From positions 1-10,135 of the forward strand of contig JAEOTE010000142.1 of the NCBI GenBank assembly GCA_016839945.1: a stretch of DNA of 10,135 bases. The letters run 5' to 3'. Both the position numbers and the translations under genes were made by a program. This DNA is from Candidatus Heimdallarchaeota archaeon (GTDB taxonomy: Archaea > Asgardarchaeota > Heimdallarchaeia > Heimdallarchaeales > Heimdallarchaeaceae). Of the stretch, positions 1 to 10,135 are shown in pieces; position 1 is the stretch's first letter, and the number at the start of each line of letters is the position of its first letter. The notes beneath the pieces are model-generated. The model saw nothing but the letters and a program-made list of their open reading frames with translations, did no database searches and had not been told where the DNA came from.

Positions 1-308
1 ACAGAACTAAAAACAGGTAGAGAAAGATCAAAAGATGTTGTTATTTCACCTCCATCTAGAAGAAAAGTAGCAATAACAGATTCATCTTTTCCTGCAATCA
101 AACTAAGCTTTTCTTGTAATAGTACAGTTTCCTCTTTAAGTAAGGGAATTTTCAAATTGGGGAACGATTCATCTTCACTTTCTTGAGAGGAATAAATAAA
201 CATTGGAGAGAAAACTATGGAAGAGAGGAACAAAATGAGTACCACTGATGTTTTAAGATATGGTGGGGCTATTCTTTTCTTGAAGTAGAGATTTTTTTTG
301 GTACTCAT
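1..308 (-). CDS. Secreted or membrane-anchored hypothetical protein, N-terminal part only (runs off the window start; absent from the ORF track)
   Basis: Manual translation from ATG at 308: MSTKKNLYFKKRIAPPYLKTSVVLILFLSSIVFSPMFIYSSQESEDESFPNLKIPLLKEETVLLQEKLSLIAGKDESVIATFLLDGGEITTSFDLSLPVFSS..., open to the window edge. A basic N-region followed by a hydrophobic stretch fits a signal peptide or anchor. SD-like GAGGGG at 322-317. Confidence 0.8.
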   Translation of the reverse strand, partial: MSTKKNLYFKKRIAPPYLKTSVVLILFLSSIVFSPMFIYSSQESEDESFPNLKIPLLKEETVLLQEKLSLIAGKDESVIATFLLDGGEITTSFDLSLPVFSS

Positions 309-409
309 GAAGCGTTCCCCTCATATTTTATATTAAGTAAGAATATTGATAAGACTTTATTTTTATAAAATTTAAAGTATTGAGTTCTAATTTTCTCGAG
401 TTCCTTCAT
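305..409 (-). CDS. Putative 34-aa small protein (MKELEKIRTQYFKFYKNKVLSIFLLNIKYEGNAS)
   Basis: Its ATG (409-407) overlaps the upstream gene's TGA (ATGA), and its own TGA (307-305) overlaps the downstream ATG (ATGA). SD GGAGGT at 421-416, 6 nt before the ATG. No recognisable homology. Confidence 0.35.
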   Translation of the reverse strand: MKELEKIRTQYFKFYKNKVLSIFLLNIKYEGNAS

Positions 410-1263
410 ATAGCGACCTCCAGCATATTCATAACAACAAAAGCTAAACCATTAAGGATGAAAATAACGAAAAGAGCTATTGTACCTGCTTTTTCGACCC
501 TTAACTGTTTGATAACCACCACTGATTCAATTAATAATCCTACGAAAATTAACTGAATTACGAATAATAAAACAATGACCCAAACATCCATTTGCAAAGG
601 AGAAACTGAGTATTCAAACTCAAAAACCAAGGACATGAGAATGCTTAACACGATAAAAGGTAATTGTGCAAAAATTATACCTTGAAATAAAGCTAACCTA
701 CCTATCTTTCTTTTGAATATTATACTTACTAGGAACTCACTAATTATGTAAGTTATAAGAACTGAAAGAATAAAAAAAACTGGTGCAAAATAGTCAGGAA
801 CTATATATGAAGGATAAAGGAAAATTGGGGTAACAGAAAGAAAATATGTTGCTACTCCAAAACCTATGAATAGAAGAATTGAGAAACCTAATGACCTCAC
901 TGGATCATTTGCTATAAATTGGAAGATATGTCTTAGAAAGATTGTATGCATAAAAGAAAAACGACCATATACTTGCAAACCAGGTGCAGAAACATCTAAC
1001 TCATCCTCTATTAGAGCATAAGCTCTGCTTCCTTTTTCAGTTAGAAGATATTTCTTTGATGTGTCTTGAGTGATTAATTCACCGAGAGTATCTAAGTGAT
1101 GATAGAGAGTTCCAACTTTCATCTGAAACCTTTCTTGGATTTCAGTAAAAGAAACGATTTTTTTTTCACCAATAAAACTAAGTAACTCTCTTCTAATTTC
1201 ATTTGAGAGAGCTTTCCATATTTCAGGTGAAGTTCGTTTCTTTGAAATCATAATAACTAACAT
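406..1263 (-). CDS. ArsR-like winged helix-turn-helix domain fused to a ~5-TM membrane domain (Yip1-like); putative membrane-bound regulator
   Basis: N-terminus ALSNEIRRELLSFI...SFTEIQERFQMKVGTLYHHLDTL...YLLTEKG is a typical ArsR/HTH_20 wHTH. The C-terminal ~160 aa has five hydrophobic segments. The start may be ATG 1251 (MISKK) instead of 1263. Confidence 0.8.
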   Translation of the reverse strand: MLVIMISKKRTSPEIWKALSNEIRRELLSFIGEKKIVSFTEIQERFQMKVGTLYHHLDTLGELITQDTSKKYLLTEKGSRAYALIEDELDVSAPGLQVYGRFSFMHTIFLRHIFQFIANDPVRSLGFSILLFIGFGVATYFLSVTPIFLYPSYIVPDYFAPVFFILSVLITYIISEFLVSIIFKRKIGRLALFQGIIFAQLPFIVLSILMSLVFEFEYSVSPLQMDVWVIVLLFVIQLIFVGLLIESVVVIKQLRVEKAGTIALFVIFILNGLAFVVMNMLEVAI

Positions 1264-1277
1264 TAATTGTCATCAGT

Positions 1278-1297
1278 TAATTTAAAATTTGGCTTTC
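1278..1297 (-). promoter_or_regulatory. Possible BRE/TATA promoter for the wHTH-membrane gene
   Basis: Minus strand reads GAAAGCCAAATTTTAAATTA: a purine-rich stretch then TTTAAA, about 30 nt upstream of ATG 1251. Weak evidence in AT-rich DNA. Confidence 0.3.
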
Positions 1298-1299
1298 TA

Positions 1300-2424
1300 T
1301 TAATGGGATTGAATTATGTTGTACATAGTATCTCTCTGAACAGGAATTCTTTTTGCATCTCTAATCAAATCAATAAATTCTTCTATTGATTTCTCCTCAC
1401 CAAATTGCCCACCTGCACTTTTAGTAATAGATTCAACAAAAAGCGTTCCTCCTAAATCATTTACTCCTGCATTAAGAGAAAGCTGAGCAAACTTTGGACC
1501 TAGTTTAACCCAAGAAGCTTGAATGTTTGGAATAACTTCTCCCATGTACAATCGAGCAGTACTAAAAAGTGCTAAATCGTGCATCCCTGTACTTCCAGGC
1601 CTCGCTCCTAAATATCTATAGAGTATAGTTTTATCGTGCACAAAAGGCAATGGTACAAATTCAGAAAAACCTTGGTAAATATCTTGGATATGTTTCAACA
1701 GAACTAGGTGTTCAGCTTCATCTTTATGTGATTCAATATGGCCATACATCATGGTTGATGTTGTCTTTAATCCTAATTGGTGAGCTGTTAAAACAATATT
1801 CACCCATTGATTGGTTGATATTTTTTCTGGGCAAATAATCTTACGAACATCATCTACTAAGATTTCAGCTGCTGTACCTGGCATTGAATCTAAACCATTG
1901 CTTATTAATTCCTTTAGAACATCTGCAACAGATTCTCCGGTGATTTGCGACATGTAAGCTATTTCAGCAGGGGAAAATGCATGTATATGTAACTTTGAAG
2001 TAGTTTGTCTGATTGTTTTGAGTATTTCTAAATAATAATCGAATGTTAATTCTGAGTCTAATCCGCCTTGAAGACAAACTTCAGTACATCCCCTTGCAAT
2101 TGCTTTTTCAACTTCTATCTTTATATCATCCAAAGACATTCGAAAAGCTGTCACATTGTTATTCTTTTCATCAGCTCTAAAGGAGCAGAATCTGCAAGAT
2201 CCTATACAATGGTTTGTAAAATTAATATTCTGATTTAAAACAAAAGAAACATTATCCCCTACTTGCTGTTTTCTTAAATCATCAGCTAAGGAAGTTTGAA
2301 TCCATAAATCCCTTCCTCTTTTGCTTAGCATTTTTGTGAGTTCTAATATCTCCTCTTCATGTGATTCATGAAAAGAAGATAAATCACACACTTCTTCTAT
2401 TTTAGGGGGAGAAAGCTTCTTCAT
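1300..2424 (-). CDS. cofH: FO synthase subunit 2 (5-amino-6-ribitylamino-uracil:L-tyrosine 4-hydroxyphenyl transferase), radical SAM
   Basis: ADDLRKQQVGDNVSFVLNQNINFTNHCIGSCRFCSF (CxxxCxxC), EVCLQGG, HIHAFSPAEI, SMPGTAAEIL, TMMYGHIE, NIQASWVKLG and NDLGGTL are CofH/MqnC-family motifs. Direct adjacency to cofG favours CofH over MqnC/MqnE. Confidence 0.92.
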   Translation of the reverse strand: MKKLSPPKIEEVCDLSSFHESHEEEILELTKMLSKRGRDLWIQTSLADDLRKQQVGDNVSFVLNQNINFTNHCIGSCRFCSFRADEKNNNVTAFRMSLDDIKIEVEKAIARGCTEVCLQGGLDSELTFDYYLEILKTIRQTTSKLHIHAFSPAEIAYMSQITGESVADVLKELISNGLDSMPGTAAEILVDDVRKIICPEKISTNQWVNIVLTAHQLGLKTTSTMMYGHIESHKDEAEHLVLLKHIQDIYQGFSEFVPLPFVHDKTILYRYLGARPGSTGMHDLALFSTARLYMGEVIPNIQASWVKLGPKFAQLSLNAGVNDLGGTLFVESITKSAGGQFGEEKSIEEFIDLIRDAKRIPVQRDTMYNIIQSH

Positions 2425-3487
2425 TTCTATAATGTTCCTCTATTATTTTGCGTATTCTATTGCTTAAATATTTTTCATATTCAGGGTAAACTGGTAACCT
2501 TGCCTTTAGAGAATAGTCTTGTTGTTCCAATTCTTGTCTCAGCTCTTCTTCTTTATGCCATTTCATATTAGGGTTAATATAATCTATAGATATTGGGGAA
2601 ACACCACCCAAATCATTAGCTCCACATCTTAACGATTCTATAATTCTCTCTGTGTTAAGATTAGGTGGTATTTGAATACTAATTTGTGAAGGTAAAATAC
2701 ATCTAGCTAAAGAAACAGAGAGTAAATATTCCTCTTCTGAAGGTGGAGGATTTCTTTGCATCGGTGTTCCTTGCTGAGGATTGAAATTTTGAACTATTAC
2801 TTCCTGAATATGTTTATACTTCTTACTTAATTTTGCTAATGCATCAAGAGATTCTATTCTTTCATCCCATGTTTCCCCTATACCAACTAAAATTCCTGTT
2901 GTGAAAGGTATTTTCAATTTTCCAGCATTCTCAATTACTTCTATTCGTAAACTTGGGTTCTTACCTGGAGAATACTGATGGGCTTCTCCTTCAGACATTA
3001 GTCGGTCACTACTTGATTCTAGCATTAATCCAAGACTTGCGTTACAATCCTTTAGATATTCCAACTCTTTGTATGGTAAGACACCTAAATTAGAATGAGG
3101 TAGTAAAAATTGACTTAATGCAACCTCACAAAAATAATGGACGTATTCGAATGTTGAGCTAAAACCTTGGTCTACAAGAAACTCTCTCGCTGATTGATAT
3201 TTATCTTCAGGTTTTTCTCCTAGAGTTAATAAAATTTCAGAACATTTGGATTCTTTAGCTTGTTTTATCATTTGTAGATAGTTTTCCTTTGTAATCCAAC
3301 TCTCTGGATCATCAGAAACAAAACCACAATAACTACATCGATTTCTACATTGTTGAGTTACAGGAACAAAGATATTCCTAGAAAAAGTTATTTCATTACC
3401 ATAATTTTTTCTAGCAATCTCACTACTCTTGGAGATAAGTTCTTCCTTGTTGTTTTGCAGTAGTGATAGATAATGTTCAACACTCAT
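2402..3487 (-). CDS. cofG: FO synthase subunit 1 (7,8-didemethyl-8-hydroxy-5-deazariboflavin synthase), radical SAM
   Basis: ITFSRNIFVPVTQQCRNRCSYCGF (CxxxCxxC), LPHSNLG, NASLGLMLE, IPFTTGILVGIGE, HIQEVIVQNF, QIPPNL, NDLGGVSP and RLPVYP are CofG signatures. Overlaps the cofH start by 23 nt. Confidence 0.93.
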   Translation of the reverse strand: MSVEHYLSLLQNNKEELISKSSEIARKNYGNEITFSRNIFVPVTQQCRNRCSYCGFVSDDPESWITKENYLQMIKQAKESKCSEILLTLGEKPEDKYQSAREFLVDQGFSSTFEYVHYFCEVALSQFLLPHSNLGVLPYKELEYLKDCNASLGLMLESSSDRLMSEGEAHQYSPGKNPSLRIEVIENAGKLKIPFTTGILVGIGETWDERIESLDALAKLSKKYKHIQEVIVQNFNPQQGTPMQRNPPPSEEEYLLSVSLARCILPSQISIQIPPNLNTERIIESLRCGANDLGGVSPISIDYINPNMKWHKEEELRQELEQQDYSLKARLPVYPEYEKYLSNRIRKIIEEHYRNEEAFSP

Positions 3488-3511
3488 TCAGACTCAGCTT
3501 CTTTAGCTATT

Positions 3512-4189
3512 TTACCTTTTATCTAATATTAATGAAACTAAGAAACCTTCCTCTAGTTCCTCTATATTTGTTATTTTAAGTTGTGGTGCAGTGGATATAT
3601 CTTCAATAACCTTTTCACTAAAAAGGTGCTTTGCATTAATACCACCTGCAAAAGCTGGAAAGTAAAAAACATACATTCTATCAATAAGATTATTTTTTAG
3701 AAATTGTGTTATAATTGTAGAACCACCCTCAACTAGTATCTTATTTATGTTATATTTCGATTTTAAGATTTCAAGAATAGATTTTAAATTAAGAAATCCG
3801 CTTTTTTCATCTTCTGAAACTGCAATCACATCTGTTTTACTTTTTGCAATTTCTTCTTTTTTTTCTTCAGAACATTTTTCAGAAACGAACACCAGAGTTT
3901 TGTTGACTTTCTGATTTTTGAGAACTTTTGAATTTAGAGGGATTCTACCATTAGAATCTAAAATTACTCTGAAAGGAGGTGGAGATTTAGGTTTCACATA
4001 CCTTATTGTTAACATTGGATTATCAGTAATGATTGTGTTAACCCCTACTAATATTGCGTCTACTGAATTTCTTAACTCATGAACTCTTACCCAATCTTCT
4101 GTTGTTGAAAGAAAAAGAGCTCCCTTATCCGAAGCAATAACGCCATCAAGAGAACTTGCTACATTAATTATTATTTCTGGTCTTTCCAT
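3512..4189 (-). CDS. arfC: 2,5-diamino-6-ribosylamino-4(3H)-pyrimidinone 5'-phosphate reductase (stand-alone RibD C-terminal domain; ArfC/Rib7 type)
   Basis: NVASSLDG, D..RVHELR...DAILVGVNTIITDNPMLT, RVILDSNGRIP and ILVEGGS motifs. It has no N-terminal Zn-deaminase domain, unlike bacterial RibD. Confidence 0.85.
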   Translation of the reverse strand: MERPEIIINVASSLDGVIASDKGALFLSTTEDWVRVHELRNSVDAILVGVNTIITDNPMLTIRYVKPKSPPPFRVILDSNGRIPLNSKVLKNQKVNKTLVFVSEKCSEEKKEEIAKSKTDVIAVSEDEKSGFLNLKSILEILKSKYNINKILVEGGSTIITQFLKNNLIDRMYVFYFPAFAGGINAKHLFSEKVIEDISTAPQLKITNIEELEEGFLVSLILDKR

Positions 4190-5322
4190 TTTACTAACCT
4201 ACCTTTGTACATTTGAAATCCTATATCAGAAGGTTCTGCTCGCATTGTGATTGCACTGTATATATCTTTAGATAATTTCAAGTTGGGATTTTCTAAATCT
4301 ATTCCTATAAAATCTGCACTAAATCCTTCTTTAATTTGCCCAATTTTCTTTTTTGCTATCAATCCAGGGTTGACTGTTATAGATTTTAATACTTCTCTTG
4401 GTGTGATTTTCTGATTATTATTCCGTGCATTAATGAGCGTGAAAGCCATTAATCTAAATGGATCAGGATTACAGCTTAGAACATTATCTGTTCCCAAACC
4501 TAGAATTATCCTCTTCCTTAGGATGGATTCTATTGGAGGAAATTTAAGTCCATAATACAAGCTTGAAGTTGGGCAACAAATTACACACATATTTTTTTCC
4601 TTTAATAGAGATAATTCATCTTCATTTGCATATGTTGCATGAACAACATAATCAAAAACTGAATAATCACATACCAACTCTATATCTCTTTTACCATATT
4701 TTGAGAGAGAATTAGAAAGCAGCTCCTCTGATTCAGAAACGTGTATCCCTACAAGTTTTTCTGGATTATTCTCTTTCAATGATTTTGTTGTTTTCACAAT
4801 TTCCTTATCTACTGCAAAAATATCAACAAAACCTAAACCATCACTTTCATTGAAAACATCTTCTAAATCTCCTTCTGCTTTACTTCTTCCAAATATCAGC
4901 CCTCTTAAAGGAAAACTAGATAATATGTTCTTGAGTAAAACAACTCCTTCCACTCCTTGTTCTCTAAAATCGAAAAAAGTAGTATAACCGTTGTGTACTA
5001 ACATCTCCAAAGAATTTTGTATACTATCTCTTCGTTCTTCTATAGTGCTAGTATTCAACTTATTATGTTTTATTCCTTCGGGACCTACAGTTTCATCAAG
5101 TGATAATCCATAACCTTGATCTTTAAGAAAAGCATCAGCAACATGAGTGTGTGCATTAACAAAACCCGGTATCAAGACATAAGAGGGGGGTAGCAGATAC
5201 GTTATTGGTTTTTGTTCTTTAGTTATTTCAACAATAATGCCTTGTTCATCTACTTGAATATACACACTTTGAACAAATTCCAAATCGGGCCCAATCAAAG
5301 CATTAGCACATATAGTGACCAT
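4171..5322 (-). CDS. Metal-dependent amidohydrolase, deaminase subtype (COG0402-like archaeal family)
   Basis: LIPGFVNAHTH (HxH), GIHVSE (HxxE), VHAT, CPTS, LGTDN and G.IKEGFSAD motifs. ATG 5322 (MVTI) is preferred over GTG 5331. Overlaps the reductase start by 19 nt. Confidence 0.88.
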   Translation of the reverse strand: MVTICANALIGPDLEFVQSVYIQVDEQGIIVEITKEQKPITYLLPPSYVLIPGFVNAHTHVADAFLKDQGYGLSLDETVGPEGIKHNKLNTSTIEERRDSIQNSLEMLVHNGYTTFFDFREQGVEGVVLLKNILSSFPLRGLIFGRSKAEGDLEDVFNESDGLGFVDIFAVDKEIVKTTKSLKENNPEKLVGIHVSESEELLSNSLSKYGKRDIELVCDYSVFDYVVHATYANEDELSLLKEKNMCVICCPTSSLYYGLKFPPIESILRKRIILGLGTDNVLSCNPDPFRLMAFTLINARNNNQKITPREVLKSITVNPGLIAKKKIGQIKEGFSADFIGIDLENPNLKLSKDIYSAITMRAEPSDIGFQMYKGRLVKWKDQK

Positions 5323-5349
5323 TTTGCACACGTTAAAATATTTGTGAGT

Positions 5350-5367
5350 GTATTAAGAGTTTTTTGA
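5350..5367 (-). promoter_or_regulatory. Putative BRE/TATA promoter of the deaminase-arfC-cofG-cofH operon
   Basis: Minus strand CAAAAAACTCTTAATA. The TATA-like element lies about 29 nt upstream of ATG 5322 and no SD is apparent, consistent with a near-leaderless mRNA. Confidence 0.4.
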
Positions 5368-5387
5368 ATACATAACAAGTTTACATT

Positions 5388-5410
5388 CGCAAAAATCATT
5401 ATATTTATAA
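5388..5410 (+). promoter_or_regulatory. Putative BRE/TATA promoter of the EF-2-family gene
   Basis: CGCAAAAATCATTATATTTATAA: an A-rich BRE-like stretch followed by TTATAT/TTTATAA, about 45 nt upstream of ATG 5455. Confidence 0.5.
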
Positions 5411-5454
5411 TGCAACCTTTGAAATTAGCGTCAAAGTAAAAATAGTTGATAAAG

Positions 5455-7671
5455 ATGGTTCGAGTTAAGAATCCAGATGAAATACGTGATATGATTAAAA
5501 ACCATCCAATGAATCAAAGAAGAGTTTTTTCTATCTCAGCTCACATTGATCATGGAAAAACAACCACTAGTGATTATCTATTAAGAAAAGCCGGTTTAAT
5601 GTCAGATGCTGATGCCGGTAAGAAAGTTATGATGGATAGTGATGAAGAAGAACAAGAAAGAGGTATAACAATTTTTACAAGTGTTGTTCTGCTTTCATAT
5701 GAATTAGAAGGTCAAACTTATCTTTGTGAAATTAATGACACTCCAGGTCACATCTCATTTACTGGAGAAGTAAGCAGAGCTCTCAGAGGAAGTGATGGAG
5801 TTATCATTCTTGTTGATGCTCTTGAAGGTGTAATGACTCAGACTGAAACCAATATTAGACTCAGTCTAGGGGAAATGTGTAAACCAGTATTGTTCATTAA
5901 CAAAGTTGACAGACTTATTTCTGAATTAAGATTACAACCTCAGGATGTTTTTGCAAAAATTGACACAATTATTACAGGTGTCAATAAGCTCATCAGAGAA
6001 AATTCACCTGATGAAATAGGTAAAGGATGGCAGGTTTCATTCAAAGATGGTACTGTTGCAGTAGGATCTGCAAAAGATGGTTGGGCTTTCAATATGACAA
6101 CTTTGCAGAAACTACAAATTAAACCTCAAGATGTTTTTGCAAAGTATGATGAGAATGATAAAGAATGGTTAAGAGATAATCTCCCTCTTGAAGAACCTTT
6201 ATTGGAAATGGTTATCAAACATCTTCCAGATCCAGTTGAAGGACAAAAACTTAAAATCCCAGCAATTTGGGATGGAGATTTAGAAAGTCCTGAAGGAAAA
6301 GCTCTTTTAAATTGTGACAGAGATGGTCCTCTTTTAGGAATGATTACAAAAATATTCATTGAACCAAAATCAAAAAGACCAACTCTCATAGGTAGAGTAT
6401 TCTCTGGTACTTTAAAGAAATCCGATACACTCCATCTTATTGGAAAGAAAACTGAAAGTCGAATTAAAAGATTAGGAGTAATGGAAATTACGGACATTCT
6501 AGATGTTGAAGAAGTTCCAGCAGGAAATCTTTTTGCTATTTATGGTTTCATTTGTCCAGCAGGTGAAACCTTTGTTCGAGCGGAAGACAAAGGAAAACTG
6601 AAATCTTTTGAAGATATTTCTTATGTTGCAGAACCTGTTGTAAGTAGAACAATCAAACCAAAAGATCCTCAAGATATAGCAAAACTTGGTGATGTTGTAT
6701 CTAAGTGGATTATGGCTGATCCTACAGCTGCTTTTAGACATGATGAAGAATCGAAAACATATGTATTATCAGGAATAGATCCTCTGCAAATAGAAATTCT
6801 TGTTACACGTATTCAAGAACAAGTTGAAATTGATGTTAGTGACCCTATTATTGTTTATAGGGAAGTTCCCACAAAAAATGGTTTGACTATACACACCAAA
6901 TCTCCAAATGGTCACAACAGAATAATGTTACATGTTGAACCAATGAACCAAGAAGCTGTAGATTTAATCAAATCAGGTAAAGTACATAATGATCAAGATA
7001 GAAGAGAGAGAGCAATAATGCTACAGCAAGAAGCAGGATGGGAAGCTAAGAAAGCAAGAAGAATATGGTTTGTAAAGGATACAAATGTACTTCTAGATGC
7101 AACTACTGGAGTGCAGAGATTAGATAATATAAAAGCCTATATTATACAAATTTTCTTTGACTTTTGTGAAGGATCAACTTTAGCTAAAGAACCTTTAATG
7201 GCTTCTAAGTTCATAATCACAGATGCAAAAGTTCACGTTGATCCAGCTCATACAGGATATACTGAAATAATGCAAATGTGTTTGGCAGCATTTCATACAA
7301 CATTCTTAACAGCAGAACCTCAGATTCTAGAACCTATGTTGATAGTTGATATTAAAGTTCCTAATGATTATGTTGGAAATATGTCCAAAGTTATAACACA
7401 ACATAGAGGGATAATACTTGATATGACACAAGAAGGAGAGAGTACAAATATAAGAGGAAAACTACCTACGGCTGAAACTATTGACATAGCAGATGAGATA
7501 AGAGGAAGCAGCTCTGGACGTGCATTCTTTGGTTATCAATTCCTCGGTTTCGAACGTGTTCCTACTAACTTGGAAGCAGAAACTATTGAATCGATTAGAG
7601 TTCGTAAAGAACTGGCCCCACAAGTACCTGATGTTAATAATTGGGATCGTTTTATTTACAAGCGAACCTAA
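5455..7671 (+). CDS. fusA: Archaeal elongation factor 2 family translational GTPase, divergent (possible aEF-2 paralog)
   Basis: G1 AHIDHGKTT, G2 ERGITI, G3 DTPGH, G4 NKVD, G5 GSA; domain IV SPNGHN; domain V PQILEP and IRGSSSGRA; ~738 aa, the archaeal EF-2 length. ATG 5455 is preferred over TTG 5446. The diphthamide loop reads HVDPAHTGYTE. Confidence 0.92.
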   Translation: MVRVKNPDEIRDMIKNHPMNQRRVFSISAHIDHGKTTTSDYLLRKAGLMSDADAGKKVMMDSDEEEQERGITIFTSVVLLSYELEGQTYLCEINDTPGHISFTGEVSRALRGSDGVIILVDALEGVMTQTETNIRLSLGEMCKPVLFINKVDRLISELRLQPQDVFAKIDTIITGVNKLIRENSPDEIGKGWQVSFKDGTVAVGSAKDGWAFNMTTLQKLQIKPQDVFAKYDENDKEWLRDNLPLEEPLLEMVIKHLPDPVEGQKLKIPAIWDGDLESPEGKALLNCDRDGPLLGMITKIFIEPKSKRPTLIGRVFSGTLKKSDTLHLIGKKTESRIKRLGVMEITDILDVEEVPAGNLFAIYGFICPAGETFVRAEDKGKLKSFEDISYVAEPVVSRTIKPKDPQDIAKLGDVVSKWIMADPTAAFRHDEESKTYVLSGIDPLQIEILVTRIQEQVEIDVSDPIIVYREVPTKNGLTIHTKSPNGHNRIMLHVEPMNQEAVDLIKSGKVHNDQDRRERAIMLQQEAGWEAKKARRIWFVKDTNVLLDATTGVQRLDNIKAYIIQIFFDFCEGSTLAKEPLMASKFIITDAKVHVDPAHTGYTEIMQMCLAAFHTTFLTAEPQILEPMLIVDIKVPNDYVGNMSKVITQHRGIILDMTQEGESTNIRGKLPTAETIDIADEIRGSSSGRAFFGYQFLGFERVPTNLEAETIESIRVRKELAPQVPDVNNWDRFIYKRT

Positions 7672-7675
7672 AACA

Positions 7676-7716
7676 TCTTTTTTTCTATTTTTTCTATATT
7701 TTAAGTTAAAAAAAGA
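7676..7716. terminator. Bidirectional archaeal oligo-T terminator region between convergent genes
   Basis: T7 (7678-7684) and T6 (7688-7693) follow the EF-2 stop on the plus strand. A7 (7708-7714) is a T7 tract on the minus strand after the stop at 7735. Confidence 0.6.
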
Positions 7717-7734
7717 AATGAGTGAAGAGAGTTT

Positions 7735-9258
7735 TTATTCGTCTTCGACGAATTCAGTGCCCAATTGTTCATAAAAGAGATCTTCTTCAGTTATTGGTTC
7801 AAGTTCTCCTTCAATTATTATACCTGCTTCAAATTCCTCGAAATCTTCTATGTCGTCAAGTTCAGGTTCTAGTTCTTCCTCAAATCTTGATGAGAATCTT
7901 TCCTGAATATATCCTACTAAAGCGGTTAGCAAGAGAATGAAAACCACAATTGGTATAAGTAGTAATACAACTCCTTCTGGTTGTAACATTTCTATTGAGT
8001 TATAGATTGATGGCGGGTATCGTAAAACAAACAACAACACATCAGGATTAAGAATTGCATATAATCCTGCAAGCATTATTCCAACTCTGAAAAGAACAGA
8101 AACTCCTACATAAACTAATGTCATTAATGGTTTAATCAAAACTGAAGTTCCTACCAATTTGTCATCTACTCTGGCATCACTGTGAACTAATCCATCATGA
8201 TACCTTTGGAGTCTTGCTGTTAGTTTATCTTGTTGTCCCCCTGGTTTGGCAAAAAGAGAGTCAGAAGCTTTTTCTATAAAATAAGTCATTCCAGCTAGAC
8301 CAAACTTTCTAGCTATAGAGCTTCCTGTACCACTGATTGATAAAGAAGCTTTTGAATCCTCATCATCTTCTTCTGGCTTTTCTAAAACTTGTTTGGGGGT
8401 TGTGTCAGTTACTCCTAACCTGAATTCTCTCAAACGATCTAAAGCTCTTAAAACCCTTTGTTGTCGACTTTGAGCGGGATTCAGTATTTGCGTTATATAT
8501 GATATCTGCAACGATATTTCAAGGAACAAATAGGAAGCTAACGCCATTAAAACAACATTGTTCGAGAATAACTCACCAACTCTATTTGTTGGACTGAATG
8601 AAAATACACCAGGCCAGAAAAGATGTTGAGTACTTGCATGAAATACAATGAGCTGAGTGCAGATGAAAGCTGTTGCAGCTGTACGCATATCTGCGCGGAA
8701 TAGAAACGCAACTAAAGTTAATATAAACAAGATTACAAGAACCATCAATATCGATGCTCTATTTGATGGTTGTAATGAGTTAAAAACTCCTCCACTGAAA
8801 AGATTTCCAAATGATCCAAATAAGTTAGTTGCTGATCCACCAAAGAAAACGTCAGGAGTTAATTCCCCTGTGGGATTAGGTGGGTTAACACCATTGAATA
8901 GATCTTCAGTAACAAATGCTCTAGCACCTAGAAGTATAGCCGCAGCATCAGCACTAGAAATTGCTAAGAAAATCATTAGTGGTGCAGAAAAAATCACGAT
9001 TGCAATATTTTCAAAGAAAACAAAGATAAATGTCATAGAATTAAGAAGGTATCCATCTGGGAATTTAGTGGTATTAGATAGTTCAATTAAACCATTTGTA
9101 GGATGTAATAAAGATAACAAAACCCATAGTGCAATACCAAAGGCAGCTAAACGTCCCACTAAATGAGTTATTATTGTTTGATATCGAGCACCTCTTATTC
9201 TACGTTGAACTCCTCTTATTCCGAGGTCAATAAATCTTGTATCTGCTAAAGATTCCAT
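7735..9258 (-). CDS. Polytopic membrane protein of unknown function (~507 aa) with a large polar loop and a very acidic C-terminal tail
   Basis: About 7-9 hydrophobic segments. Start reassigned from 9351 to ATG 9258 (MESLADTRF), because SD GGTGAT (9270-9265) precedes it and this removes an 86-nt overlap with the DUF58 gene. Confidence 0.82.
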   Translation of the reverse strand: MESLADTRFIDLGIRGVQRRIRGARYQTIITHLVGRLAAFGIALWVLLSLLHPTNGLIELSNTTKFPDGYLLNSMTFIFVFFENIAIVIFSAPLMIFLAISSADAAAILLGARAFVTEDLFNGVNPPNPTGELTPDVFFGGSATNLFGSFGNLFSGGVFNSLQPSNRASILMVLVILFILTLVAFLFRADMRTAATAFICTQLIVFHASTQHLFWPGVFSFSPTNRVGELFSNNVVLMALASYLFLEISLQISYITQILNPAQSRQQRVLRALDRLREFRLGVTDTTPKQVLEKPEEDDEDSKASLSISGTGSSIARKFGLAGMTYFIEKASDSLFAKPGGQQDKLTARLQRYHDGLVHSDARVDDKLVGTSVLIKPLMTLVYVGVSVLFRVGIMLAGLYAILNPDVLLFVLRYPPSIYNSIEMLQPEGVVLLLIPIVVFILLLTALVGYIQERFSSRFEEELEPELDDIEDFEEFEAGIIIEGELEPITEEDLFYEQLGTEFVEDE

Positions 9259-9265
9259 TTTTTTA

Positions 9266-10135
9266 TCACCCTTGACGTTGCATCCTATTAAATTGAGACA
9301 TAACTGTAGGTAAGAAATCATCAGGTCCAACAGAAACTGAAGTAGTGTCATATCGTCTCAAAATCTTGAACATGTTTTGACGTTCTCCAAGTTGTTTTTC
9401 AACCATTGCATGACCAATCATCTGTTCTACAGGTGTGAGTTGTTGAGAAACAATCTCAAACCATGGACCAAATGGAGAGATTACAGTGATGTTGTGTTTT
9501 CTTGCACGTGCTCTTCGAACTGCATTAACTACTTTTTGTGGATTTGATTCAAGATCAGTTATTAGAACTATGTAGGCAGAACGCTTAACTCGTTGTAGAA
9601 GATACTCTATTGCCACTTCTAAATCAGATTCATCTTGAGGTTTAACATGTGCTAAAGCTTCAAGAAACTGGAAGAGATGAGAACGAACTGAAGTAGGTTC
9701 TACCCAATTCCGAATTTCTTTATCATAAACACATAAACCAATAATATCACTTTTTTCAAATGCTAGATGAATAAGTAGAACAGCACTTCGAATAGCGTAC
9801 TCTAATTTAGTATTACGAGGAAGACCAGCACCCATGCTAGCGGAAGAATCAATTAACACAACAACGCGTATATTCTCTTCTGATTCGTACTCACGAACCA
9901 TCATCTTACCAGAACGAGAGAATGCTTTCCAATCAATAAATTTGAAAGGATCTCCCACTTGATATTTTCTGATACCCCAGAAATCCGATCCCATACCTTT
10001 TAATTTTGTACGATGGAATCCAAATAATACGCCTAGTTGTCTTTTTCTTCCTATTAACTCTAGTTTCTTTATGTCTTCATAGCTTGGATAAACTAAAATC
10101 TCTGTTTTAGTTTTTATTTCCCCTTCTGTAGCGTA
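9266..10135 (-). CDS. DUF58 family protein with vWA-like domain (MoxR-associated); 5' end lies beyond the window
   Basis: The frame stays open upstream of the ORF-track Met to the window edge: ...EILVYPSYEDIKK...GFHRTKLKGMGSDFWGIRKYQVGDPFKFIDWKAFSR...VREYE. This matches the DUF58 pattern VYP...G.eF..lReY.pGD....IdWka.Ar. MIDAS-like IDSSASM and LITD are present. Confidence 0.9.
   Translation of the reverse strand, partial: YATEGEIKTKTEILVYPSYEDIKKLELIGRKRQLGVLFGFHRTKLKGMGSDFWGIRKYQVGDPFKFIDWKAFSRSGKMMVREYESEENIRVVVLIDSSASMGAGLPRNTKLEYAIRSAVLLIHLAFEKSDIIGLCVYDKEIRNWVEPTSVRSHLFQFLEALAHVKPQDESDLEVAIEYLLQRVKRSAYIVLITDLESNPQKVVNAVRRARARKHNITVISPFGPWFEIVSQQLTPVEQMIGHAMVEKQLGERQNMFKILRRYDTTSVSVGPDDFLPTVMSQFNRMQRQG

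Follow-up and report, generated by a model that had tools for sequence, protein, structure and literature searches.

A predicted pyrimidine deaminase of the amidohydrolase superfamily heads an FO synthase operon in a Heimdallarchaeota lineage

Among the enzymes of archaeal riboflavin and F420 synthesis, one of the last that is still unassigned is the deaminase acting at C2 of the common pyrimidine intermediate. A candidate for this pyrimidine deaminase, named PyrD, was proposed in 2010 by Osterman, Overbeek, and Rodionov from gene clustering and co-occurrence, as recounted in PMC5397151, and Rodionova et al. wrote in 2017 that PyrD "remains to be tested" (PMC5397151). In 2021, Pfeiffer and Dyall-Smith listed HVO_2483 and MJ0699 as PyrD candidates in need of experimental confirmation (PMC8305020). 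The current study concerns a stretch of 10,135 nucleotides (nt) from Candidatus Heimdallarchaeota archaeon (GenBank assembly GCA_016839945.1, contig JAEOTE010000142.1, positions 1 to 10,135; here called the window), in which the gene of an amidohydrolase (AH) stands at the head of an operon together with the genes of an ArfC-type pyrimidine reductase and of CofG and CofH, the two radical S-adenosylmethionine (SAM) subunits of the synthase of the deazaflavin FO. The original prediction for this DNA had named AH as a candidate for the missing deaminase and described that step as not firmly assigned. This description holds insofar as PyrD is still only a predicted enzyme, but the idea itself is not new (PMC5397151, PMC8305020); the deaminase prediction is a well-supported rediscovery, and AH is a further member of the predicted PyrD family.

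The four operon genes and a helix-turn-helix (HTH) gene are located on the minus strand in the order AH, reductase, cofG, cofH, and HTH. The AH reading frame extends from a GTG codon over positions 4171 to 5331, and the ATG codon at position 5322, which agrees with the N termini of homologues (MITICANALIG or MVTICANALIG), gives a protein of 383 amino acids (positions 4171 to 5322; Pfam Amidohydro_1, NCBIfam NF005552) that is predicted to deaminate the diaminopyrimidine intermediate at C2. The reductase of the ArfC/Rib7 type (positions 3512 to 4189, minus strand; 225 amino acids) has positions 4171 to 4189 in common with AH, i.e., an overlap of 19 nt, and its stop codon is separated by 24 nt from cofG (positions 2402 to 3487, minus strand), which in turn overlaps cofH (positions 1300 to 2424, minus strand; Pfam Radical_SAM and CofH_C) by 23 nt. 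Coordinates and family models thus bear out the predicted arrangement, with a deaminase-type amidohydrolase at the head, a 19-nt overlap with the reductase gene, and cofG and cofH next. The scores of CofG (427.6 bits on NF004884 and 405.2 bits on TIGR03550) exceeded both curated cutoffs, as did that of CofH on TIGR03551 (449.2 versus 374.1 bits). The reductase matched the Pfam domain RibD_C with 156.6 bits and TIGR00227 with 166.8 bits, which is above the cutoff. RibD_C was its only Pfam domain, which agrees with the earlier view of a stand-alone reductase without the RibD zinc deaminase domain, and a Pfam search of AH and the reductase for PF00383 (CMP/dCMP deaminase, zinc) gave no match.

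The HxH, HxxE, and GTD motifs on which the original prediction was based were all present in AH, namely, H58 and H60 (NAHTH), H194 and E197 (HVSE), and G277-T278-D279, in addition to H228. The residues H58, H60, D63, K85, H194, E197, H228, C250, D279, and N280 were invariant in an alignment of 52 diverse AH representatives, and the long motif AHTHxxDxxxKDxGxGxxLxExVxxPxGxKH, put forward earlier in nearly this form, was essentially the consensus of the family. In the family profile, the catalytic residues aligned with the zinc ligands and the catalytic glutamate of solved COG0402 deaminases, and the AH motifs matched NAHGH, HVHE, VHMT, and GTD of the zinc-bound deaminases 4dyk and 4gbd. The metal-binding and catalytic set of a COG0402-type deaminase, comprising HxH, a further histidine, the aspartate of strand 8, the glutamate of HxxE, and the histidine of strand 6, is complete in AH. 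A close solved relative was not found in the PDB by sequence (best E value, 4.7e-11). The AlphaFold2 model (predicted local distance difference test [pLDDT], 97; predicted template modeling score [pTM], 0.94) was a (beta/alpha)8 barrel with a beta-sandwich formed by the N and C termini, i.e., a deaminase-type fold, and Foldseek matched it with a probability of 1.00 and TM-scores of 0.82 to 0.88 to 4gbd, 3lnp, 4f0r, 1p1m, 7ww2, and 2i9u. The best PDB matches, with 14 to 21% identity, were without exception enzymes that deaminate or dechlorinate amino-substituted N-heterocycles, and the structural neighbors comprised methylthioadenosine (MTA)/adenosine deaminases, AtzA, TrzN, an isocytosine deaminase, and guanine deaminases. 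Guanine and isocytosine deaminases act on a 2-amino-4-oxopyrimidine moiety, as borne by the flavin intermediate.

A homologue search against 1.84 billion cluster representatives returned 115 clusters at an E value of <=1e-30, which form a coherent family of proteins of about 380 to 400 amino acids. The best NCBIfam model for AH was NF005552 (PRK07213, "chlorohydrolase") with 252.5 bits over model positions 6 to 374 of 382, and it led the next model by about 160 bits. The models of DadD, MtaD, SsnA, guanine deaminase, and HutF gave only about 45 to 92 bits, with DadD, MtaD, and GuaD at about 60 to 75 bits, e.g., 64.9 bits on NF012037 (MtaD) against a cutoff of 779. A FastTree phylogeny with Shimodaira-Hasegawa-like supports was calculated from 99 rows, i.e., 94 members of the AH family and, from the genome of the window, five further COG0402 paralogs (439 to 483 amino acids, one of them SsnA-like). 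The AH family and the paralog group were recovered separately with a support of 100 each, AH fell outside the DadD-, MtaD-, SsnA-, and TRZ/ATZ-like paralogs of its own genome, and within the AH family the protein from the window belonged to a well-supported clade of the Heimdall type. The family is a distinct, structurally uncharacterized branch of metal-dependent deaminases.

Three lines of evidence connect this branch to the published PyrD proposal. Among the control genomes, NF005552 was matched at an E value of <=1e-30 by all four archaeal ones, those of Methanocaldococcus jannaschii and Haloferax volcanii included, and by no other; MJ0699 and HVO_2483 are the candidates named in the literature; and the GenBank record of the family member P0145, OLS12595.1, bears the SEED name "Pyrimidine deaminase archaeal predicted." In the FastTree phylogeny, OLS12595.1 was placed inside the AH family in one clade with the members from rib operons. 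Judged by its sequence, AH therefore belongs to the published PyrD family, with the link to MJ0699 and HVO_2483 running via the control-genome matches, the papers, and the SEED name.

To examine the genomic neighborhood of the family, GTDB species, each represented by a single genome, were scanned with a 14-sequence family alignment as the query, which returned 80 loci, a few of them bacterial and the others from Nitrososphaeria, Halobacteria, methanogens, ANME-1, Thermoplasmatota, and Aenigmatarchaeota; the unfiltered open reading frames (ORFs) around these loci were clustered, and the largest clusters were annotated. The commonest neighbors were ArfA/GTP cyclohydrolase III (37 loci), lumazine synthase (36), DHBP synthase (35), and riboflavin synthase (29). 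About 40 loci of Nitrososphaeria have the order ribE-ribB-ribH-arfA-AH-arfC on one strand with gaps of less than 25 nt, a locus of Aenigmatarchaeota (DPANN) has the order ribH-ribB-AH-arfC, and a Heimdall locus has AH-arfC. In two loci of the Methanothrix type, arfC adjoins AH in divergent orientation. Within the window's own GTDB family, AH-arfC-cofG-cofH, followed by the HTH gene, is kept in four genera down to 41% AH identity, and the same four genes without the HTH gene are kept in a second, sister family (f13) at an AH identity of 32 to 34%. The linkage of AH to arfA, arfC, ribH, ribB, and ribE, as well as to cofG and cofH, is thus conserved across archaeal phyla.

A sample of 121 genomes of the window's phylum, in which AH was scored as present at an E value of <=1e-30, gave a corresponding phyletic pattern, which, since related genomes are not independent, should be read as a pattern spanning several families and not as a statistic. 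AH was present in 42 genomes, all of which have RibH (lumazine synthase) or true CofH, and in none of the 73 genomes without both, so that AH occurred only where at least one of the two is encoded. It was accompanied by CofH without RibH in 20 genomes and by RibH without CofH in 6. Among six apparent exceptions to this pattern, four have a copy that is either diverged (137 to 144 bits on NF005552) or divided between contig ends, and two of the diverged copies directly adjoin ribH. The gene immediately 3' of AH is arfC in 37 of the 42 AH-bearing genomes, and AH-arfC is kept in all nine sampled genomes of the window's family. AH was found both in families with RibA and without ArfA, including that of the window, and in families whose arfA gene immediately precedes AH. 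A bacterial-type RibD above the cutoff was not detected in any of the 121 genomes. As a separate observation, a GTP cyclohydrolase II homologue (ORFs of 240 to 300 amino acids) is present in 14 of the 17 genomes of another family of the sample (f10), in which AH, RibH, and true CofH are all lacking.

The genome from which the window originates (assembly 88% complete, 3.0 Mb) encodes RibA (GTP cyclohydrolase II) on another contig, as well as CofD and two CofE proteins. Searches of this genome found neither ArfA nor a deaminase of the RibD/Rib2 type, and its sole protein with a cytidine deaminase (CDA) fold is a dCMP-deaminase/ComEB-like protein of 163 amino acids. The gene order, the catalytic residues, the fold, the conserved association with arfC, the phyletic pattern, and the separation from the DadD-like paralogs lead us to infer that AH is one of the mononuclear-metal deaminases in the amidohydrolase superfamily, that it takes the amino group from C2 of the 2,5-diamino-4-oxopyrimidine intermediate in flavin and deazaflavin synthesis, and that it is a nonhomologous replacement of the zinc deaminase domain of RibD and Rib2; we put the probability of this reading, in both parts, at roughly 0.8. 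Such a replacement had been the core of the original prediction, and synteny, the tree, the phyletic pattern, and the absence of a RibD/Rib2-type deaminase from the genome all speak in its favor, as far as sequence data can. Deamination at C2 is favored as the reaction because it is needed with RibA as well as with ArfA and for riboflavin, FO, or both, and because this step always goes together with ArfC and these genomes offer no other candidate enzyme for it.

The resulting route would start with RibA, which would make 2,5-diamino-6-ribosylamino-4(3H)-pyrimidinone 5'-phosphate, and would continue with the reduction of the ribosyl to the ribityl side chain by the ArfC-type reductase. AH would then deaminate C2 to give 5-amino-6-ribitylaminouracil 5'-phosphate, and a phosphatase, to which no gene is assigned, would release the substrate of CofH. 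The substrates of CofH are 5-amino-6-ribitylaminouracil and tyrosine, from whose condensation CofH and CofG would form FO, and CofD and CofE, encoded elsewhere, would extend FO to F420. Translational coupling through the 19-nt and 23-nt overlaps might keep the enzymes of this route in balance.

Several points weigh against the assignment of AH as this deaminase. The NF005552 score of 252.5 bits is below the curated cutoff of 294 bits; other members of the family showed comparable values (haloarchaeal, 261 bits; Methanothrix, 244 bits; both under the cutoff), and a Methanobrevibacter member passed it with 456 bits. In the Heimdall-type clade, CPTSS or CPLTA (window positions 4560 to 4580, residues 247 to 254) takes the place of CPRSN or CPRAN of the family and CPESN of the solved deaminases; this exchange is located near the active site, and the specificity could therefore differ. 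The haloarchaeal AH genes have no rib genes as neighbors, and their usual neighbor is a universal stress protein (Usp) gene. Furthermore, the co-occurrence counts overstate the evidence because the genomes of one lineage are not independent of each other, and an activity assay of any member of the AH family was not found in the literature searched. Finally, the succession of reduction before deamination is itself a conclusion from relatives, and the sequence is compatible with either order.

This last point leads to the alternative that AH is the same deaminase acting in the bacterial order, i.e., that the ribosyl intermediate is deaminated first and 5-amino-6-ribosylaminouracil 5'-phosphate is then reduced. 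The use of a bacterial-type RibA instead of ArfA in the genome, the position of the deaminase gene 5' of the reductase gene in every operon seen, and a reductase score below the cutoff of the archaeal equivalog model TIGR01508 (166 versus 186 bits) would all fit. However, the nearest solved relatives of the reductase are the reduce-first enzymes, namely, M. jannaschii 2azn (E value, 3.6e-31), followed by 6p8c (to about 1e-29), whereas bacterial RibD/RibG proteins match at about 1e-21, and reduction before deamination was shown biochemically for M. jannaschii by Graupner et al. in 2002, as cited in PMC5397151. We regard the bacterial order as unlikely, with a modest chance of being correct.

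A far smaller chance is given to another hydrolytic step, either the missing dephosphorylation or an ArfB-like removal of the formyl group from the formylamino-pyrimidine that ArfA makes. AH directly follows arfA in Nitrososphaeria and in several families of the window's phylum, HutF, likewise in COG0402, cleaves a formimino group, and the ArfB assignment is itself only predicted in many archaea (PMC8305020). However, no formyl intermediate is expected in the window's family, which has RibA and no ArfA; an ArfB-like role fails because this family nevertheless always keeps AH-arfC. The HxxE deaminase signature is moreover invariant in the 52 representatives, and only deamination is required whichever cyclohydrolase a genome has, and always together with ArfC.

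The occurrence of AH with RibA or ArfA, and with RibH in genomes lacking CofH, argues not only against a deformylase but also against a DadD-like salvage enzyme that would deaminate the 5'-deoxyadenosine released by CofG and CofH. This alternative to the pyrimidine deaminase had been raised in the original prediction and could draw on the fact that AH has the superfamily and fold of MTA, adenosine, and 5'-deoxyadenosine deaminases and shares an operon with two radical SAM genes. It became highly improbable in the light of the model scores and the tree: AH reached 64.3 bits on the DadD model NF005557, against a cutoff of 522, whereas the genome has a separate DadD-like paralog with 482 bits on the same model, and the AH family formed a clade apart from such paralogs. 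In addition, AH is located in rib operons without any radical SAM gene, and the phyletic pattern (6 genomes with AH and RibH without CofH, and none of the 73 genomes without both) speaks against it as well. The proposal of a guanine, isocytosine, or pterin-type deaminase, with a link to the flavin genes through coregulation of GTP-derived cofactors and not through a pathway step, is equally hard to credit, since the presence of guanine and isocytosine deaminases among the structural neighbors and of GTP cyclohydrolase I genes beside AH in f13 is opposed by a score of 59 bits on the guanine deaminase model TIGR02967 (cutoff, 375), by the tight adjacency or overlap with arfC that is conserved across phyla, and by an AH presence that coincides exactly with that of RibH or CofH.

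With AH read as the C2 deaminase, the question arises as to which product the window lineage makes. Searches of the genome for RibB, RibH, and RibE were negative, and a riboflavin kinase is present (ORF of 235 amino acids, G000:C151:16118-16483). Within the window's family (f1), 2 of 31 genomes had RibB and 1 of 9 had RibH; RibH was also not found in G074, a genome of this family consisting of a single contig. The absence of ribB, ribH, and ribE together with the presence of a riboflavin kinase is therefore most simply read as riboflavin salvage combined with de novo synthesis of FO and F420. The lineage might thus be a riboflavin auxotroph that has kept RibA, the ArfC-type reductase, and AH solely to feed CofG and CofH, i.e., as a supply line for the deazaflavin only, a proposal to which we would give even odds. 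No description of such an operon arrangement was found in the literature searched. If true, the operon would be a minimal and self-contained test bed, since its four genes plus RibA should make FO without a RibD deaminase, and such an outcome would also prove the archaeal deaminase. In G026, a bacterial-style fused ribBA (ORF of 400 amino acids) is located beside ribH (G026:C1:242281-243929), far from the AH-arfC-cofGH cluster of this genome; in this one f1 member with riboflavin genes, ribBA-ribH looks like a separate acquisition.

The remaining genes of the window are of less certain relevance. The HTH protein (DUF7347/HTH_20, ArsR/SdpR-like; positions 406 to 1263, minus strand; 285 amino acids, with Pfam and NCBIfam matches) is encoded 36 nt downstream of cofH; in the window's family, four genera have its gene 3' of cofH, with 47 to 62% identity, and it was not found after cofH in f13. 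It may be a cotranscribed, lineage-specific regulator of the operon, although its place in the system is uncertain. The AT-rich intergenic region at positions 5323 to 5445, as read from the sequence, separates AH from the divergent aEF-2 gene (positions 5446 to 7671, plus strand) and presumably holds the operon promoter. Beyond aEF-2, an ORF of 538 amino acids without a Pfam or NCBIfam match (positions 7735 to 9351, minus strand) adjoins a DUF58/VWA gene (positions 9266 to 9994, minus strand), and both are kept beside aEF-2 in relatives with 53 to 83% identity.

In all ten genomes of family f13 (G008, G019, G030, G040, G057, G071, G077, G083, G099, and G113), the only type I GTP cyclohydrolase gene of the genome is located directly beside AH-arfC-cofG-cofH. 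The encoded enzyme is of the FolE2/MptA type (PF02649) in seven of them, e.g., at L132:3632-4447 and L133:3191-4099, and a classical FolE (PF01227) in three, e.g., at L131:8762-9319; GTP cyclohydrolase II or III was not found at an E value of <=0.01 in eight of the ten. The type I enzyme may supply the first step of the FO branch in this family, or the synthesis of pterins and deazaflavins may be coregulated. Outside the archaea, the AH members of Terrimesophilobacter, Parafrigoribacterium, and Trueperaceae (L039, L044, L056, and L086) form one clade without rib genes nearby and may have been transferred from archaea. The AH of L011, a record titled "Thermoproteota archaeon," is identical to that of L121 (G076), which belongs to the window's GTDB phylum, so that the record title and the taxonomy disagree.

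The window contributes to the PyrD proposal in three respects. It adds independent support, in that the AH family is tied to ArfC whatever the product (riboflavin, FO, or both) and whatever the type of cyclohydrolase; it provides a compact Asgard operon that is fit for a direct biochemical or complementation test; and it adds evidence of a lineage that would keep the pyrimidine branch for F420 alone. Compared with the described members of PyrD/NF005552, AH has the same family, the same proposed role, and the same type of evidence, i.e., clustering and co-occurrence, but the operon that it heads is an FO operon (arfC-cofG-cofH) and not a rib operon, its lineage lacks ribB, ribH, and ribE, and it scores 252 bits, which, like the 261 bits of the haloarchaeal members, is below the cutoff of 294. 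With the N-terminal domain of RibD and with fungal Rib2, AH would share the type of reaction and the pathway position, and it is likewise genetically coupled to a RibD_C reductase, but it is a (beta/alpha)8 amidohydrolase barrel and not a CDA fold with zinc, and the folds and catalytic machineries are unrelated. DadD and MtaD (TM0936) share with AH the COG0402 subgroup, the metal ligands, and the catalytic glutamate and are its best structural matches (TM-score by query, 0.83 to 0.88), but identity is limited to 17 to 21%, AH is about 55 residues shorter, and its clade and genomic context are different. Guanine and isocytosine deaminases (2i9u, 6ohb, and 7ww2), finally, are structural neighbors that perform the very chemistry needed here, but they are only 15 to 19% identical to AH, whose family is distinguished by its own invariant residues D63, K85, C250, and N280.

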